This document shows, in pieces, positions 3,244 through 62,611 of a stretch of 64,000 nt of DNA. Under the pieces are notes generated by a model that did no database searches, was not told the DNA's origin, and saw only the letters and a list, made by a program, of their open reading frames with translations. The first letter of the stretch is position 1. Every line of letters starts with the position of its first letter. Made by a program: the position numbers and the translations under genes. Source of the DNA: Dehalococcoidia bacterium (lineage in GTDB: Bacteria; Chloroflexota; Dehalococcoidia; GIF9; UBA5629); assembly GCA_011170325.1 (NCBI GenBank), contig DUEX01000002.1, positions 1,462-65,461 on the forward strand, read 5' to 3'.

Positions 3244-4050
3244 TTACTTGCCCTGATACAGGGGGGGCCTCTTCTCACCAGCAGCTCTTTGCCCCTCTTT
3301 GCCGTCATCTGTGTGGAAAGCAAGCGACATCAGCCAGCCCTCCCAGTCAATGGCACTATTAAAGTCCATCCCGAGCCCCTTATATATCAGCTCCTTGGTC
3401 ATCGCATTGCTCAGAGGCGCATATCCAGCTAGTCTGCTAGCCAGATCCATGGCAGCCTCTTCTAGCTTTTTGTCAGGAACTACCTTATTCACCATCCCTA
3501 TTCGTTCAGCCTCTTGAGCATCTATTGTGTCACCCGTTAGTAGGAGCTCTGCAGCCTTGCCTAAGCCTACCACCCGGGGTAGTAACCAGCAGGCCCCGAG
3601 ATCCGAAGAAGGTAACCCTACCCGTGGAAACAAGAAGGCAAACCGAGCTCTCTCCGCGGCAATTCGAATGTCACAAGCAACGGCAATAACCGCTCCTGCC
3701 CCTGCAGCATATCCATTCACAGCCGCAATGGTAGGTTTCCTGAGGCTAAGCAGTCCTTTGGTAACACGCCCTGCCATGCGCTGAAAGGCAATCAATGCCC
3801 GGGAGTCCGCCTCTAGAAGCCTGCCCATGATATCGTGGACATCTCCGCCAGAACAAAATCCCCTCCCCTCCCCTGTAAGAACCAGAACTTTGACAGTGTC
3901 ATCCTCTCTTAAGTCAAAAGCCATACGCCCTAACTCTTCGTAGGTCTCAAATGTAAGTGCATTTAATTGCGCGGGACGGTTCAATCTAACGGTAGCAATA
4001 CCACCTTCCACAGTAAATATGAAACTCTTATATGGCCATTTTCTCACCAT
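3244..4050 (-). CDS. Enoyl-CoA hydratase/isomerase (crotonase) family protein.
   Basis: 268 aa. Crotonase oxyanion-hole region TIAAVNGYAAGAGAVIAVACDIRIAAERARF and GFCSGGD motif. AAGGAG RBS. Confidence 0.85.
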   Translation of the reverse strand: MVRKWPYKSFIFTVEGGIATVRLNRPAQLNALTFETYEELGRMAFDLREDDTVKVLVLTGEGRGFCSGGDVHDIMGRLLEADSRALIAFQRMAGRVTKGLLSLRKPTIAAVNGYAAGAGAVIAVACDIRIAAERARFAFLFPRVGLPSSDLGACWLLPRVVGLGKAAELLLTGDTIDAQEAERIGMVNKVVPDKKLEEAAMDLASRLAGYAPLSNAMTKELIYKGLGMDFNSAIDWEGWLMSLAFHTDDGKEGQRAAGEKRPPLYQGK

Positions 4051-6998: not shown

Positions 6999-7962
6999 CC
7001 TTCACCACTTCTCCCACCTTGCCTTCGCTTACCAGAAGCTGAAGATGAGCTAAGGTCTCCATCACAGCCAGTCGCCTATCCCAGGCAGCCAGGCCTTGGA
7101 AACTGATAGCCTCGGCATCAGGCATCCACGGGATCTCCGTAGCTATTTGATAGGCTGTTTTCATTTCATCTTGTGTAACCTCTACCACAGCCGATTTCCT
7201 CCGTTCATGATGATAAAGTAATTCCTCAATTCTCTGTCCGAGCCCGCTAAAAGCAGGACCATGTCCGGGGAAGACAAAATTGACTTCTAGCTCCATCAAA
7301 CCTTTCAGAGAATTGAGGAAATCACCCAATGGGTTTTTCCCAGATTGAGGATGGAGACCGATATGGGGAGTAATCTCAGGTAAAACATGGTCTCCGGAAA
7401 ATAGGAATTTCCGTTTTGGTTCATAAAGGCAGACATGTCCTGGTGAATGCCCCGGGGTTAATAAAACCTTAAACTCAAAAGGCTCAATAGAAATCTTTTC
7501 TCCAGCCTTTAGTTTGATTTCGGGCAAAGCCGGTATTACAAACTGACGCACTGGCAACGAGGCTTCACTGAGTTGGGACAGCTCACTTTGGGGAACTCCG
7601 TTGGAACGGAGAAGGTGCAACACCTTCTTCAGCAGAACATCCAAATTCACATATCGTAAATCAAGCATACCCGCCTCGATTCCACTGAGAGCTACTTTAG
7701 CCCCAGAAAGCTCTCTAATCTTGCCAGCTAGGCCATAATGGTCAGGGTGGAGATGAGTAACTACAATTTGACTGATATCTTTAAAATCAAAGCCGCTATT
7801 CCTCAGCTCCTCTTTTAATGTGGAAAAGGCTTCTGGAGTATTCCAACCAGTATCAATCATCAGGTTACCCTTCTTGCCTTCGATTAAGTAAACATTGACA
7901 TGGTCTAGCGCACCGACGGGCAAGGGAATTTTTATCTGGTGGATACCCTGAACTAACTCCAT
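6967..7962 (-). CDS. MBL-fold metallo-hydrolase.
   Basis: 331 aa. HxHxDH motif VTHLHPDHYG and downstream His/Asp ligands. Its 3' end overlaps the queF start by ~32 nt. Confidence 0.8.
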   Translation of the reverse strand: MELVQGIHQIKIPLPVGALDHVNVYLIEGKKGNLMIDTGWNTPEAFSTLKEELRNSGFDFKDISQIVVTHLHPDHYGLAGKIRELSGAKVALSGIEAGMLDLRYVNLDVLLKKVLHLLRSNGVPQSELSQLSEASLPVRQFVIPALPEIKLKAGEKISIEPFEFKVLLTPGHSPGHVCLYEPKRKFLFSGDHVLPEITPHIGLHPQSGKNPLGDFLNSLKGLMELEVNFVFPGHGPAFSGLGQRIEELLYHHERRKSAVVEVTQDEMKTAYQIATEIPWMPDAEAISFQGLAAWDRRLAVMETLAHLQLLVSEGKVGEVVKDDTKFYRARG

Positions 7963-51037: not shown

Positions 51038-52423
51038 TTGAGGGAAAGAGATAAATTGAGGTCAGCACAAGAAATTTGGGAAGCAGCTCTAGGAGAGCTC
51101 CAAATTCAAGTTAGCAAGCCAAACTATGATACTTGGCTGAAGGATACTGCAGGTGTAAGTTATCAAGATGACCTTTTCGTGGTCAGCGTTCCCAACGTCT
51201 TCATTGCTGAGTGGCTAAAAAATCGCCTCCTTTCCTTAGTAAAAAGGACTTTAGCCAGCATTATTGGTAGAAATGTTAATGTCCAATTTCTGATTCAGAC
51301 TCCTAGCCAAACTGACACCCACCTAGCCCACGCTTGGCAAGCTGATGGCGGGATAAGCTCAAAGCTAAAGGAGCCAATTAAACCACCCAGGTTTAATCAA
51401 AAGTATACCTTCGATACCTTCATCACTGGAGAGTCTAACCGTCTAGCTTATGCGGCTGCTTTAGAGGTTGCCGAAAAGCCGGGGCATACCTATAATCCAC
51501 TTTTTATTTACGGTGATACTGGTGTGGGCAAGACACATCTGCTACATGCCATCGGACACGCGGTCAAAGCCAACAGGCTCCAGACACTTTATGTTAGCGC
51601 TGAGCAGTTTACTAACGAGTTTGTAATTGCCATCAAAAATAAGAAAATCGAGGACTTTCACCACAAGTTTACGAGTGCCAGTGTTTTATTAGTTGATGAC
51701 ATCCAATTTCTAATCGGCAAAGCACAAACTCAGGAATGCTTCTTCCACATTTTTAACCACTTATATGACGATAACTGCCAAATTGTGGTCACCAGCGACC
51801 GCTCTCCAAGAGCTATGTCCCCGCTCGGCAGAAAATTGAGGTCACGCCTTGAATGGGGGCTCATCGCCGATATACAGCACCCAGATTCGGAAACATGTCT
51901 AACCATCCTAAGTGTTAAAGCAAAGCAGCTAAAGGTATCTATTTCACCGGAAGTACTACAGTTTCTAGCAACACAATTTCAGCATAATATTCGTGAGTTG
52001 GAAGGCGCCTTAAACCGAATAGTCACCTACGCGAAGCTAAGCGGCACAAATCTAGACCTACACTTAGCTACACAGGCACTGACAGATATAGTGGCAAAAG
52101 ACAATCGGCAAGAAGCCATGTTTACACCAAGGCTGATAATAGAGACTGTAGCTAATTATTATGCCCTCACCCCTGAAGCATTAACAGGTAAAATGAGGGA
52201 TAAGAAAACCGCTTTAGCTCGCCAAGTTGCTATGTACTTGCTACGCGAGCAAAACCACTGCCGCTTGGCTGAAATTGGCAAACTATTAGGAGATAGAGAC
52301 CACACAACTATACTCCACGGTTATGAAAAGATAGCTGCCGAAGTAAAGTCTGCCCCTCAGCTTAGTAAGTCGATTGAAGAAATCCGTCAAGGGCTAAAAA
52401 TCAACAGAAAAACTCCAACTTGA
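51038..52423 (+). CDS. dnaA: Chromosomal replication initiator DnaA.
   Basis: Walker A GDTGVGKTHLLHAIGH. Sensor motifs. C-terminal DNA-binding helix (LREQNHCRLAEIGKLLGDRDHTTILHG). TTG start at 51038 or 51056. Confidence 0.95.
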   Translation: MRERDKLRSAQEIWEAALGELQIQVSKPNYDTWLKDTAGVSYQDDLFVVSVPNVFIAEWLKNRLLSLVKRTLASIIGRNVNVQFLIQTPSQTDTHLAHAWQADGGISSKLKEPIKPPRFNQKYTFDTFITGESNRLAYAAALEVAEKPGHTYNPLFIYGDTGVGKTHLLHAIGHAVKANRLQTLYVSAEQFTNEFVIAIKNKKIEDFHHKFTSASVLLVDDIQFLIGKAQTQECFFHIFNHLYDDNCQIVVTSDRSPRAMSPLGRKLRSRLEWGLIADIQHPDSETCLTILSVKAKQLKVSISPEVLQFLATQFQHNIRELEGALNRIVTYAKLSGTNLDLHLATQALTDIVAKDNRQEAMFTPRLIIETVANYYALTPEALTGKMRDKKTALARQVAMYLLREQNHCRLAEIGKLLGDRDHTTILHGYEKIAAEVKSAPQLSKSIEEIRQGLKINRKTPT

Positions 52424-52604
52424 TTTTGCCCTTGTGGAAGAGTTAGGCAAGATCGTGGATAACTCTGCTAGTTTGTTGATAAGCCCAATAGATTGCAATA
52501 TCGCCTTATTCCTTTCATAATATATAATCCTATCCACATAGAAACTTACCTTAGATGTTATTATTAAAAAATACCTATTCCCTTTAAATATTCAGAAATA
52601 TAAT
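52424..52604. promoter_or_regulatory. Candidate oriC: DnaA-box cluster plus AT-rich unwinding element between dnaA and obg.
   Basis: DnaA-box-like 9-mers TTGTGGAAG (52432-52440), CGTGGATAA (52454-52462), TGTTGATAA (52474-52482) and CTATCCACA (52530-52538, reverse orientation). Followed by an AT-rich 52556-52604 stretch (ttattattaaaaaatacctattccctttaaatattcagaaatataat). Confidence 0.5.
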
Positions 52605-54270: not shown

Positions 54271-56199
<1,929 letters not shown>

Positions 56200-56320
56200 T
56201 TAGCTAGAGATATAACGATTCACCAGCAATTCTAGATTAGGAATAATGGGTGCGGAGGACGACTTGCTAATCCCATATTTAGTGCCTGTGAAACCAAATT
56301 GCGCAAGGGATTGCATTGAA

Positions 56321-56352
56321 CTTATTATATCATATTGTGCTACAAATTGAAA
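56321..56352 (-). promoter_or_regulatory. Extended -10 promoter (TGATATAAT) directed toward gyrB, immediately downstream of repeat copy A.
   Basis: Minus-strand sequence: ...motif-TTTCAA-17-TGATATAAT. -10 at 56324-56329. Gives a ~130-nt gyrB leader. Confidence 0.4.
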
Positions 56353-56380
56353 GGCTAAAATATTAGGGATGTGCGAAACT
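56353..56380 (-). repeat. Copy A of a ~27-bp conserved element (AGTTTCGCACATCCCTAATATTTTAGCC on the minus strand).
   Basis: 19/19 identity (AGTTTCGCACATCCCTAAT) plus a similar palindromic tail to copy B at 57611-57637. Inverted orientation relative to copy B. Confidence 0.7.
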
Positions 56381-56589
56381 ACTCTGTCTACAAAAGAAGG
56401 TGCTGAGTCAACAGTCACCCAGTCTTGAACTCTGCAAAGCTGAGTTTCAATCCCGTTGTCCAACTAGCTTCAAGTGGCTTCCCTAGTGAATATTAACCAC
56501 GGGAGTAAGTAGCAGTTCGCTGTGTCTTTCAGGTAATGCGCGAAGGGAATCAGGGCAGTTTACGGCATTCTCTCAACATGTTGCCAGGC

Positions 56590-57477
56590 TCACTTGGGAG
56601 ATTGCAAGGCTTCCAGCAGTAGGTCGGCAAGGAATTTCACCTGTTCCCCCTTAGGTGCCCTGCGTTGCAGCCGGCCGTAACAGGCCATACAGGGAGTGAC
56701 CAAGGTACTCATACCATATTTCTGAGCGTATTGAAAGATTGCATCAGGAGCGATGACACAACAGTACCTGGGAATGTCAAGCACCTCGAGCCCGTCTATC
56801 TGGTCCAACCAAGCTCGATAGTTAGACCAGTTCAACTCCCAGTCACGCTTAGGAACATATACCCAGCTACGGTGTTGTCCGCCCGGGAAGTAGGCGATCC
56901 CCGTGGGCTGGCTCAGGCGCAGGGATGCCTGACGCATTGGCTCGTCCAGCTTGTCCAGATAGTACAGTTGCTCCACATCACAGTCAGGATAAAACTGCCG
57001 GGCTAGATAGATGCACCAAGAACACAAGTATAGGATTCGCTTAGCTCCTAGTTCTCGTGCTTGGTTAATGTTCATCGCTATCAACTCTTTGGCTGCCAAG
57101 TCGGCTTCACGCCTATTTTCGCCTCTCCTCACTTGGTAGGCTATCATCGGTGCGCCGCAGCAGTACTCCTTTTCTAGTAGCGTGTAATCTATACCCAAGT
57201 TGTCCAAGAGGTGGAAAGCAGCCCATACGGCATCTAGGGTGCCGTAACAAGCACAACCTACAACCACGACATTTTCTGACCCTTCCCTCTTTCGCCTGAT
57301 GCCTAGACCTCCTAGTACGGCATCGCGCAAGACGGGGACAGTGTAGACGAGTCCACTCCTTCTAGCATCTTCTATTAATTGCTCCAGGTTCCTGCCTGCC
57401 TCAATAAGTTCATGTGCTCTCCGTGGTATTGAACGAATGCCTCGCACATGGCGTGTCATCTGAAACCTCCTTGCCAT
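56590..57477 (-). CDS. CCG-domain (HdrB/GlcF-like) cysteine-rich Fe-S protein.
   Basis: 295 aa. Two Cys-rich domains with CxnCCGxmCxxC-type spacing (VGCACYG...YCCGAP...CSWC; YCCVIAP...CMACYG). The probable real start is the second Met at 57459, which has a perfect AGGAGG RBS. Confidence 0.55.
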   Translation of the reverse strand: MARRFQMTRHVRGIRSIPRRAHELIEAGRNLEQLIEDARRSGLVYTVPVLRDAVLGGLGIRRKREGSENVVVVGCACYGTLDAVWAAFHLLDNLGIDYTLLEKEYCCGAPMIAYQVRRGENRREADLAAKELIAMNINQARELGAKRILYLCSWCIYLARQFYPDCDVEQLYYLDKLDEPMRQASLRLSQPTGIAYFPGGQHRSWVYVPKRDWELNWSNYRAWLDQIDGLEVLDIPRYCCVIAPDAIFQYAQKYGMSTLVTPCMACYGRLQRRAPKGEQVKFLADLLLEALQSPK

Positions 57478-57610
57478 AAGAACGTTCTTAACATAGCCCA
57501 GTACGCGCCCATAAGGCTAGCTACTATTCTTCATGATTCTACCACCAGAATACCTTGGGGTAAACTATTTTCTTAGCGGCAAATTGTTATGCCGACTCAG
57601 GTTTGATTTG

Positions 57611-57637
57611 AGTTTCGCACATCCCTAAATATTTAGG
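57611..57637 (+). repeat. Copy B of the ~27-bp conserved element (AGTTTCGCACATCCCTAAATATTTAGG), containing the perfect 14-bp palindrome CCTAAATATTTAGG.
   Basis: Direct read. The palindrome is its own reverse complement. Located 4 nt upstream of the cdh -35 box. Confidence 0.7.
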
Positions 57638-57641
57638 ATTG

Positions 57642-57670
57642 TTGACACCTATGCGGTGGGCTGATAAAAT
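57642..57670 (+). promoter_or_regulatory. Sigma70-like promoter of the acsE/cdh operon: TTGACA-17-TAAAAT.
   Basis: TTGACA 57642-57647, 17-nt spacer, TAAAAT 57665-57670. ~40 nt before the acsE start, with an AAGGGGGA RBS. Confidence 0.55.
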
Positions 57671-57708
57671 GTTTTTTGGTTTGGCTCAATTAGGATAAAG
57701 GGGGATAA

Positions 57709-58587
57709 ATGGTTCTAATTGGTGAAAGCATTCACATCATTTCTAAGCAGGTGAGCGACGCTGTAAGGGATCAAAATCCGAAGGTAATTCAGGATTTGGC
57801 TATAGCTCAGGCTGAAGCTGGGGCTGACTATATAGACTTAAATCTTGGCCCGGCGAGAAAGAACCCGGAAGAGGTAACGCAGTGGCTGGTTAATACGATT
57901 CAAGAGGTCACTGATGTACCGCTGTCGATTGATACCTTGAACCCCGTAGCTATGGAAGCGGGTCTTAAAGCGTGCAAGAAAAGACCTTTGCTTAACTCCT
58001 CCTCAGGGAGGACCGACAGCAAGGACCAAATGCTACCTTTGGCCAAGAAATACTCTACTGATGTAGTCATCTCGGTGCTGACTGATAAAGGTTGTCCCCC
58101 TGACGTCGACTCGAGGACAGAGAGCATTATGGAGACAGTTGCCTATGCCAATGAGCTTGGCATTCCCAATGAGGATATCTGGGTTGACCCTATTATCTTA
58201 CCTGTCAGCGCTGACCAGAAACAGGTTGCTGAGGCTGCGGAATTCATAAAGATACTATCTGACCTCCTGCCTGGCGTTAAATCAACAGTAGGGCTGTCAA
58301 ATGTGTCCAACGGGACACCTGATGAGCTTAGAGGTATCCTTAATCGTACCTATATGGTAATGCTGGGGAGAAACGGACTATATTCGGCAATTGCCGATGT
58401 CCTGGACAAGGAGCTTATAAGCTTGAATAAAGGTAAACTGCCTAACGTTGTCGACCTTATTTATAAGACGATGGATGGAGAGACTGTAGATATAGCTTCC
58501 TTGTCACAAAAAGAACAGGATTATGTGAAAACCACCAAAGTGCTCATGGGAGAGACACTTTATTCTCACGCTTGGCTTGAGAGTTAG
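57709..58587 (+). CDS. acsE: Methyltetrahydrofolate:corrinoid/iron-sulfur protein methyltransferase (pterin-binding, AcsE-like).
   Basis: 292 aa. N-terminal LIGESIHIIS (compare LIGERIN of pterin-binding MeTr/AcsE), LDLNLGPA, VGLSNVSNG. Family-level similarity from memory of AcsE. Confidence 0.75.
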   Translation: MVLIGESIHIISKQVSDAVRDQNPKVIQDLAIAQAEAGADYIDLNLGPARKNPEEVTQWLVNTIQEVTDVPLSIDTLNPVAMEAGLKACKKRPLLNSSSGRTDSKDQMLPLAKKYSTDVVISVLTDKGCPPDVDSRTESIMETVAYANELGIPNEDIWVDPIILPVSADQKQVAEAAEFIKILSDLLPGVKSTVGLSNVSNGTPDELRGILNRTYMVMLGRNGLYSAIADVLDKELISLNKGKLPNVVDLIYKTMDGETVDIASLSQKEQDYVKTTKVLMGETLYSHAWLES

Positions 58588-61915: not shown

Positions 61916-62611
61916 ATGCGGGTTTTAATAGCTATACAGGGCTATTACGGTCAGAGAATGGTGGATAATATCAGGCAGCACTGTCCGGCCGACTGGGAGG
62001 TAAGTTCTTACACCTTCCCAGCGGAGTTACCAGCTATTATTGACGACCCTGCTGAACTTCTGCCTCGGGAGTTGCCGGCGGCTGATTTGCTCATATCTCT
62101 TGGTGAGCACCCTGGGGTAGCCCAGATGATTCCGGACATGGTGGAGAGGAGTCGTGCTAAAGCAGTGATCGCTCCGGCGGATAACCGTGCTTGGTTGCCG
62201 CCTGGCTTAGCCAGGCAAATTCAACGGAAGCTGGAATCTGTAGGGGTTGAGATGGTCTATCCAGTTCCCTTTTGTTCTTTAACAGAAAAGGATAGCCAAG
62301 ACCCTTATATTCGTGAGTTTGCTAGGTATTTCGGTAGACCCGAGGTCGATATAGATTTCGATAGAGACAGAATAAAGCAGGTCACTGTTATCAAAGAGGC
62401 TCCCTGTGGTAGCACCCGGTTCGTAGCTGATGGCTTGATTGGTGTCTGGGAAAGGGATGCTGTAGAGAAAGCTGGGCTTTTGCATCACCAGTATCCCTGT
62501 CTGGCAACGATGGTGATGGACCGGGAGTTTGAAGATACCTTGATGCACCGTGCTGGGCTTATGACTAAACTGGCAGTAGAGAGGGCTATCAAAAGCATTA
62601 AAGCAGCTTAA
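61916..62611 (+). CDS. Hypothetical protein inserted between cdhA and cdhB (possibly DUF166/COG1810-like).
   Basis: 231 aa. N-terminal beta-alpha-beta (RVLIAIQGYYGQRMVDNIRQHCP) but no P-loop, so not a CooC/AcsF ATPase. Confidence 0.4.
   Translation: MRVLIAIQGYYGQRMVDNIRQHCPADWEVSSYTFPAELPAIIDDPAELLPRELPAADLLISLGEHPGVAQMIPDMVERSRAKAVIAPADNRAWLPPGLARQIQRKLESVGVEMVYPVPFCSLTEKDSQDPYIREFARYFGRPEVDIDFDRDRIKQVTVIKEAPCGSTRFVADGLIGVWERDAVEKAGLLHHQYPCLATMVMDREFEDTLMHRAGLMTKLAVERAIKSIKAA

Follow-up and report, generated by a model that had tools for sequence, protein, structure and literature searches.

Between gyrB (54271-56187, minus strand) and an operon for carbon monoxide dehydrogenase/acetyl-CoA synthase (CODH/ACS), a contig from a Dehalococcoidia bacterium (DUEX01000002.1) holds two inverted copies of an 18-bp sequence, AGTTTCGCACATCCCTAA, around a gene for a CCG-domain iron-sulfur protein. 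Positions refer to the 64-kb stretch of DNA that was analyzed, here called the window. On the plus strand, the repeat pair is followed by a gene for an acsE-like methyltransferase and then by cdhD, cdhA, a DUF166 gene and cdhB. An earlier reading of this locus (the original prediction) proposed a shared dyad-binding regulator or a duplicated promoter cassette; as an alternative, it named a non-autonomous mobile cassette with the CCG gene, of which the two copies would be the terminal inverted repeats. Our analysis supports this alternative, on the basis of transposases in family members, target-site duplications and a homology break at the repeat ends. With high confidence, we assign 56363-57628 to one non-autonomous cassette, which has no transposase and the CCG gene as its only cargo; the DDE transposon family to which it belongs is IS1182-like and widespread in Dehalococcoidia.

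The repeat pair and the segment it encloses

The 18-mer occurs exactly twice in the window, as copy A on the minus strand and copy B on the plus strand (Table 1), and the CCCTAA ends of both copies point outward. No third site was found in the 64 kb with up to three mismatches allowed, and two matches were obtained in none of 100 shuffled controls. An inverted-repeat search of the window returned arms of 26 nt with 88% identity, and a MAFFT alignment of the two flanks revealed no similarity outside the repeat. The original prediction had counted 19 identical nucleotides; the actual number is 18, since the copies differ at base 19 (T in A, A in B). The 14-bp palindrome that it singled out in copy B, CCTAAATATTTAGG, is present (57624-57637) but means little by itself, as 30 of 100 shuffles gave a match with two or fewer mismatches. 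It straddles the element boundary, with the repeat end as left half and flanking host DNA as right half. Compared by eye with known consensus sequences, the 18-mer fitted none of σ54 promoters, extracytoplasmic function (ECF) promoters, the DnaA box, parS, LexA or CIRCE, and neither the motif sequence nor IS1182 in Dehalococcoidia yielded anything relevant in a literature search.

The element delimited by the two copies comprises 1,266 bp (56363-57628) and has ATA on both outer sides. Its order, inward from the B end, is a long terminal arm, an inward promoter, a GGAGG ribosome-binding site (57466-57470), the CCG gene, a hairpin and a short arm. The −35 hexamer of the predicted inward promoter falls in the conserved GGGGTAAAC block of the long arm. 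Within the element, the CCG-domain gene is the sole open reading frame (ORF) with a family match; its product also matches GlpC/LdhH, weakly. A transposase was detected neither in the element nor in the rest of the window, using family and domain scans and tblastn with the family transposase described below. The CCG protein is rare, with 15 homologues among 5.8 billion sequences. Homologues at 68-80% identity lie in a different context in every relative and are not accompanied by the repeats, as expected for captured cargo. The idea that the gene always moves with the repeats was ruled out, with homologues at L029-L032 (L-numbers label the compared loci or contigs) lacking the repeat at up to five mismatches.

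Table 1 Features of the window element and its immediate flanks
Feature	Position	Strand	Remarks
Host gyrB promoter, TTTCAA-17-TGATATAAT	56324-56352	−	Outside the element; read from sequence; −35 lies 10 nt from the element end
Candidate target-site duplication ATA, left	56360-56362		Chance expectation 1/64
Short terminal arm	56363-56384	−	Copy A of the terminal inverted repeat forms the outer 18 bp (56363-56380); nhmmer profile positions 64-85
Terminator-like hairpin and T-run	56403-56422	−	3' of the cargo gene, just inside the short arm; consensus match only
Cargo gene, CCG-domain (HdrB/GlpC-like Fe-S) protein	56590-57459	−	289 aa; Pfam CCG, E = 1.3e-7
Predicted inward promoter of the cargo gene, TTTACC-17-TAGAAT with TG	57536-57564	−	Consensus match
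Long terminal arm, ~81-nt unit (TTGGGGTAAAC ... TTAGCT-like ... AGTTTCGCACATCCCTAA)	57548-57628	+	Copy B of the terminal inverted repeat forms the outer 18 bp (57611-57628); nhmmer positions 4-85, E = 7e-14
Candidate target-site duplication ATA, right	57629-57631		3-bp direct repeat
Host acsE/cdh operon promoter, TTGACA-17-TAAAAT	57642-57670	+	Outside the element; −35 starts 13 nt past the element end

A transposon family sharing the 18-bp end

A search of other genomes, as proposed with the original prediction, recovered the 18-mer from ~15 species genomes of Dehalococcoidia/Chloroflexota as well as from more than 100 contigs of metagenomes. When one genome per species was scanned, exact matches occurred at 25 loci, ~18 of them in ~15 different metagenome-assembled genomes (MAGs) of Dehalococcoidia, Dehalococcoidales or other Chloroflexota, with one to four exact ends per species genome; the metagenome scan gave at least 120 contigs among the matches listed. 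About 20 of the 18-mer matches belong to an unrelated Bacteroidales repeat, in which a CGGGATG hairpin follows the 18-mer. These were set aside without explanation and treated as sharing the 18-mer by chance, because ~17 chance matches are expected in 596 Gb. The Bacteroidales repeat (L006, L007, L009, L017, L022, L033, L034, L040 and ~12 more loci) has a conserved ~60-nt tail of its own (...GATTGATTGT...TTTTACCGAAC...) and occurs in many unrelated contexts.

In all Dehalococcoidia-type copies, similarity ends abruptly after CCCTAA, with unrelated outer flanks, and continues inward for ~80 nt. An alignment of 36 such units placed the 18-mer at the outer end of a conserved ~80-nt unit with the consensus TTAGCTTGGGGTGAACTATTTTTT - N12 - AATCGTGAG - NNTTAGCTTTGR - NNGG - AGTTTCGCACATCCCTAA. 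Copy B of the window represents the full unit, and copy A matches its last 22 positions only. The 18-mer itself is non-palindromic and invariant rather than a degenerate site. We considered the ~80-nt unit as a self-contained miniature inverted-repeat transposable element (MITE) and rejected this reading because no duplication signal was seen at the inner boundary of the unit relative to a permuted control. Genes beside the copies are mostly housekeeping genes, which also ruled out a transposase next to every copy, and many copies face convergent genes or no gene.

Full-length members encode a DDE transposase of ~420 aa between or beside the ends, with the Pfam architecture DUF772, DDE_Tnp_1 and DDE_Tnp_1_6 (L016; precomputed Pfam matches for homologues) and IS1182 as the best NCBIfam match (NF033551, E = 1e-39 to 3e-41). 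The earlier remark that no transposase is present describes the window correctly but not the family. Eleven loci (L016, L065, L045, L035, L071, L120, L005, L113, L127, L075 and L002) share a constant geometry consisting of the long arm, the transposase or a C-terminal remnant of it, passenger genes and the other end. Since these transposase loci had been found through the motif, we ran the test in reverse and selected, by protein only, three homologues on long contigs from 82 transposase homologues. All three (L158, L159 and L160) have the 18-mer with at most one mismatch at the predicted place. Complete transposase-encoding elements are present at L016, L065 and L160, the last being a 3,834-bp element flanked by TCCCC on both sides, and L158 and L159 show one end each. 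In L016, L065, L158 and L160, the transposase is preceded by the long arm.

Passenger genes at other loci encode radical-SAM proteins, a kinase and anti-phage-type functions. The last group includes a Shedu SduA_C protein with a YoeB-like (toxin-like) protein (L070, 6291-11229), a TdeIII-type restriction enzyme with a methyltransferase (L016, 2860-4183) and an N6/N4 methyltransferase with a partner ORF (L160, 10207-11855). In L016, the DNA separating the long arm from the transposase further contains a fragment resembling tRNA or ssrA (640-725; GGGGCTGA...GGGTTCGAACCCCGACAGCCCC), 3' of two strong promoter-like sites.

Several features point to transposition. Among multi-copy loci, the copies face outward (−,+) at 13 distinct loci, one locus is (+,+) and none is (+,−). 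Direct repeats of 3-6 bp adjoin the ends in 8 of 12 pairs (ATA, CGC, GCA, GGT, AAATT, TCCCC, CCCGTT and CCCCTT), with a chance expectation of ~0.02 per pair. Checked for such duplications, as the original prediction had advised, the window pair taken singly offers weak evidence, its ATA/ATA being only 3 bp long; across the family, such repeats are far above chance. A 258-bp miniature copy without transposase is 96% identical at two unrelated loci (L049 and L099), where homology stops exactly at the element ends. Likewise, a cassette with an 85-aa gene is common to L002 and L016, the flanks of which are unrelated even at the protein level. Bracketed lengths across the family range from 237 bp to >4.9 kb.

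Two arrangements depart from the usual layout. At L005, two inverted copies of a ~90-bp segment that lies upstream of pth (3840-3927 and 7166-7253) flank a 3.3-kb insert that ends in a transposon end, and the two genes of this locus are only ~30 bp apart in the window. L005 is a complex insertion with a 90-bp inverted duplication and was unusable as a clean filled/empty pair. At L042, L092 and L141 (about 40-126 of L042), a transposon end lies ~18 nt past the 3' end of a tRNA gene and a second copy follows 1.1 kb away in the same orientation, the sole (+,+) arrangement seen.

The locus in relatives and the position of ends relative to promoters

The gyrB-acsE interval was compared with that of four relatives (L153, L155, L156 and L157), in which AcsE is 89-93% identical and the DNA about 84-88% identical to the window. 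All four are devoid of the element and of the CCG gene at this locus. On the gyrB side, the alignment of the window with L157 and L156, the two contigs that reach it, ends at 56360/56361. On the acsE side, similarity is again visible from the bases immediately following 57628 when the sequences are aligned residue by residue, and blastn picks up at 57635-57662. The homology break therefore coincides with both element ends. Between these junctions, the relatives hold 2.35 kb with genes for a 193-aa protein and two ferredoxin-type proteins, which are missing from the window. The interval is variable among further relatives as well: L120 (79% identity) has no repeat upstream of gyrB and a decayed element facing rpsL instead, L087 (73%) has a family end upstream of gyrB at nearly the same place as the window and, at L144, a family end adjoins a ferredoxin-type gene. 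At the orthologous pth and pyrR promoters, the repeat is present in one species and not in another, being absent at pth in the window and at pyrR in L010.

The original prediction had described each repeat as fused to an outward-facing promoter. Beside copy B, TTGACA-17-TAAAAT was confirmed with 11 of 12 matches and a TG. The TTTCAA-17-TGATATAAT sequence beside copy A also exists, but its −35 hexamer has just three of six matches and the promoter scanner did not list it. Relatives without the element retain both promoters, the gyrB promoter as TTTGAA-17-TAGAAT (L157 and L156) and the acsE promoter as TTGACG-17/18-TAAAAT (L153, L155 and L157), which identifies them as host DNA and not as parts of the element. 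Each repeat looks fused to an outward promoter because the cassette sits exactly between two pre-existing, back-to-back host promoters.

Two further observations concern the neighboring genes. The DUF166 gene (61916-62611) separates cdhA from cdhB in the archaeal-type CODH/ACS operon of the window; in L157, cdhB directly follows cdhA. On the other side of gyrB, the AT-rich spacer between dnaA (51038-52423) and obg contains three 9-mers resembling DnaA boxes (52454, 52474 and 52530; region 51038-52604), each with one mismatch, and the cumulative GC skew of the window reaches its minimum at ~52 kb. This region, ~4 kb from the element, probably contains the replication origin.

The proximity of element ends to outward promoters extends beyond the window and, in this respect, the abutment claimed earlier is real. 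In a survey of the outer flanks of 103 independent element ends from all loci, an outward σ70-like promoter with its −35 starting no more than 30 nt from the end was present at 35. At 22 of the 103 ends, the −35 starts 13-16 nt beyond the end. A minor group has −35 starts at 23-27 nt, about one helical turn further, although numbers are small (six clusters). Positions further along the flank have few such promoters, and none was found on the opposite strand within 35 nt. The outer flank is rich in T from +4 to +7 and in A from +8 to +11. In some cases, the target forms an AT-rich near-palindrome in which the duplication takes the place of a 'loop', for example CTAAA-ATA-TTTAG in the window and CTTTTTCA-CCCGTT-TTAAAAAG in L065.

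These data suggest that the family inserts just upstream of promoters. We infer that the family favors UP-like DNA with AT tracts ~14 bp ahead of −35 hexamers, a tendency that selection in very compact genomes may have accentuated. It is conceivable, if on balance doubtful, that promoter architecture itself dictates site choice, with elements integrating near −50 in the UP-element zone, ~13-16 bp before a σ70 −35 hexamer, or one helical turn farther out, perhaps guided by T-tract/A-tract geometry or RNA-polymerase-bound DNA. Were this true, such promoter targeting would be a bacterial counterpart of promoter-targeting retrotransposons, cargo cassettes with defense genes or redox proteins could settle harmlessly between the essential promoters of compact genomes and bound ends might modulate adjacent promoters. 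The spacing rule, if it reflects targeting, would represent an unusual mode of site selection.

Proposed origin of the window cassette and alternative explanations

For the window cassette, we envisage that the ~420-aa transposase of full-length members would act in trans, presumably binding the 18-bp ends and the ~80-nt subterminal arm and, on insertion, generating a short duplication that varies in length (3-6 bp). The CCG gene, for which a promoter and a terminator of its own are predicted, may have been captured as cargo. At the reconstructed pre-insertion site, two −35 hexamers would lie back to back, ~20-25 bp apart, with the element landing exactly between them and with ...GAAAGGCTAAAATATTTAGGATTGTTGACACC... 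as the predicted empty-site junction.

Several observations weigh against this interpretation. Within this genome, of which 64 kb were seen, no autonomous copy of the family is known. The transposase scores 136-142 bits against an NCBIfam IS1182 cut-off of 270 and is therefore termed IS1182-like and not a curated IS1182 member. The variable duplication length in the family is unusual for many IS families, and the window repeat is not only short but matched by similar bases at both places in the relatives. Among ends with at least 3 kb of inner flank, solo ends outnumber paired ones (26 versus 17). Lastly, a clean empty site was not found, the closest relatives carrying the different 2.35-kb segment, so that simple insertion is indistinguishable from replacement or from insertion plus deletion.

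The abundance of solo ends invites the view that the two window repeats are themselves solo ends of separate insertions or of decayed elements, with the CCG gene being host DNA. The 3-bp ATA could indeed be due to chance, and CCG homologues elsewhere lack flanking repeats. We nevertheless regard this as unlikely, as just two copies exist in 64 kb, 1.2 kb apart and facing outward as in complete elements, with the same long-arm/short-arm layout as in L065 and L160. In addition, the entire segment 56363-57628 is missing from the relatives, and with it the CCG gene, which is rare and differs in context in every relative. Less credible still, and in our judgment very improbable, is that the 18-mer serves as an operator at which a shared transcription factor co-regulates gyrB and cdh/acs in the manner of a class I activator, or that it belongs to a duplicated promoter cassette. 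The spacing is what such a model would use: both window copies lie 10-13 nt upstream of a −35 hexamer, the 13-16-nt group accounts for 22 of 103 ends with a minor group about one helical turn on, and downstream genes are mostly housekeeping genes. Conservation argues otherwise. The motif is absent at gyrB of L120, L157 and L156 and at acsE of L153, L155 and L157, is present at gyrB of L087 and varies at the orthologous pth (window) and pyrR (L010) promoters. The two window promoters share nothing beyond the repeat, and relatives without it (L157, L156, L155 and L153) keep both. The site is an invariant, non-palindromic 18-mer linked to a transposase, target duplications and cargo genes, many copies face convergent genes or none and no candidate regulator gene is adjacent. 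The regulatory reading given by the original prediction is accordingly not supported.

Inverted repeats bracketing promoter-containing DNA could also delimit a segment that a site-specific recombinase flips to switch expression. This we consider close to excluded: neighboring genes include no recombinase, family lengths vary from 237 bp to >4.9 kb with transposition-type duplications and the three assemblies that span both repeats (L027 and L028) or the right junction (L105) all have the window orientation, L026 reaching the left junction only. Equally remote is a role of the ~80-nt unit as a small structured RNA gene or as a cis-regulatory RNA. In several copies, the unit folds into a hairpin closed by TTGGGG/CCCTAA, but any imperfect inverted repeat would do so, and no compensatory changes were seen when both orientations were folded. 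A conserved promoter or terminator was not found, an Rfam scan of 55800-58000 gave no match at E ≤ 1 and the unit is continuous with element-internal DNA, having no boundary of its own.

Transposition of a non-autonomous cassette, thus preferred, removes a false lead, as no shared regulator of DNA topology and carbon fixation needs to be sought here. It also defines the ends, transposase, miniature derivatives and cargo derivatives of a previously unnamed Dehalococcoidia transposon family, the cargo of which shows how accessory and defense genes move in this group. Genomes of Dehalococcoidia are streamlined, and hardly any genetic tools exist for these organisms. With its known transposase and an 18-bp end that is intact in every family member examined, a native element of this kind is a candidate chassis for transposon mutagenesis or gene delivery.

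Relation to known systems

The transposon family has been undescribed until now, and the window element resembles a mobile insertion cassette (MIC). MICs, such as MIC231 derived from IS231 in the Bacillus cereus group, consist of insertion sequence (IS)-type ends around passenger genes without a transposase; their ends are identical to those of an autonomous IS elsewhere, and mobilization in trans is presumed. The window element similarly combines terminal inverted repeats around a passenger gene, no transposase and the ends of an autonomous element. It differs in belonging to an IS1182-like family in a Chloroflexota host, as opposed to IS4/IS231, in the long and asymmetric ends of the family (~81 nt versus ~22 nt conserved), in the variable duplication length and in the marked position ~14 bp upstream of promoters.

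A second comparison is with MITEs and small intergenic repeats of bacteria, including Correia/NEMIS, ERIC and RUP. The family contains intergenic, transposase-less copies of 237-259 bp with the same ends (L023, L049 and L099), and its sequence is conserved across many species whereas its positions are not. Unlike MITEs, the window copy has a gene, copy number is low (one to four exact ends per genome and two in 64 kb) and the ends contain no outward promoter. Repetitive extragenic palindromic (REP) sequences and REPINs, which are short, palindromic, high-copy repeats associated with the IS200-like RAYT, were ruled out, the 18-mer being non-palindromic, low in copy number and linked to a DDE transposase. 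With the class I activator and UP-element region of σ70 promoters, the resemblance is positional only: the 18-mer often lies at about −50 to −67 from the presumed start, with the second group one helical turn further, but it is part of a transposon end and is not conserved at orthologous promoters.

The closest relationship by protein is to the IS1182 family (for example, IS1272), given the best NCBIfam match and the shared DUF772 and DDE_Tnp_1 architecture. Insertion into palindromic or inverted-repeat DNA, with no or irregular duplications, is reported for IS1272 and some further members of the IS1182 family (PMC5678879). Several targets of the window family are, in likeness to IS1272, AT-rich near-palindromes. 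In contrast to IS1182 elements, the family scores below the curated cut-off, short duplications are usual and full-length copies routinely carry passenger genes downstream of the transposase, among them restriction-modification, Shedu-like, kinase and other genes.

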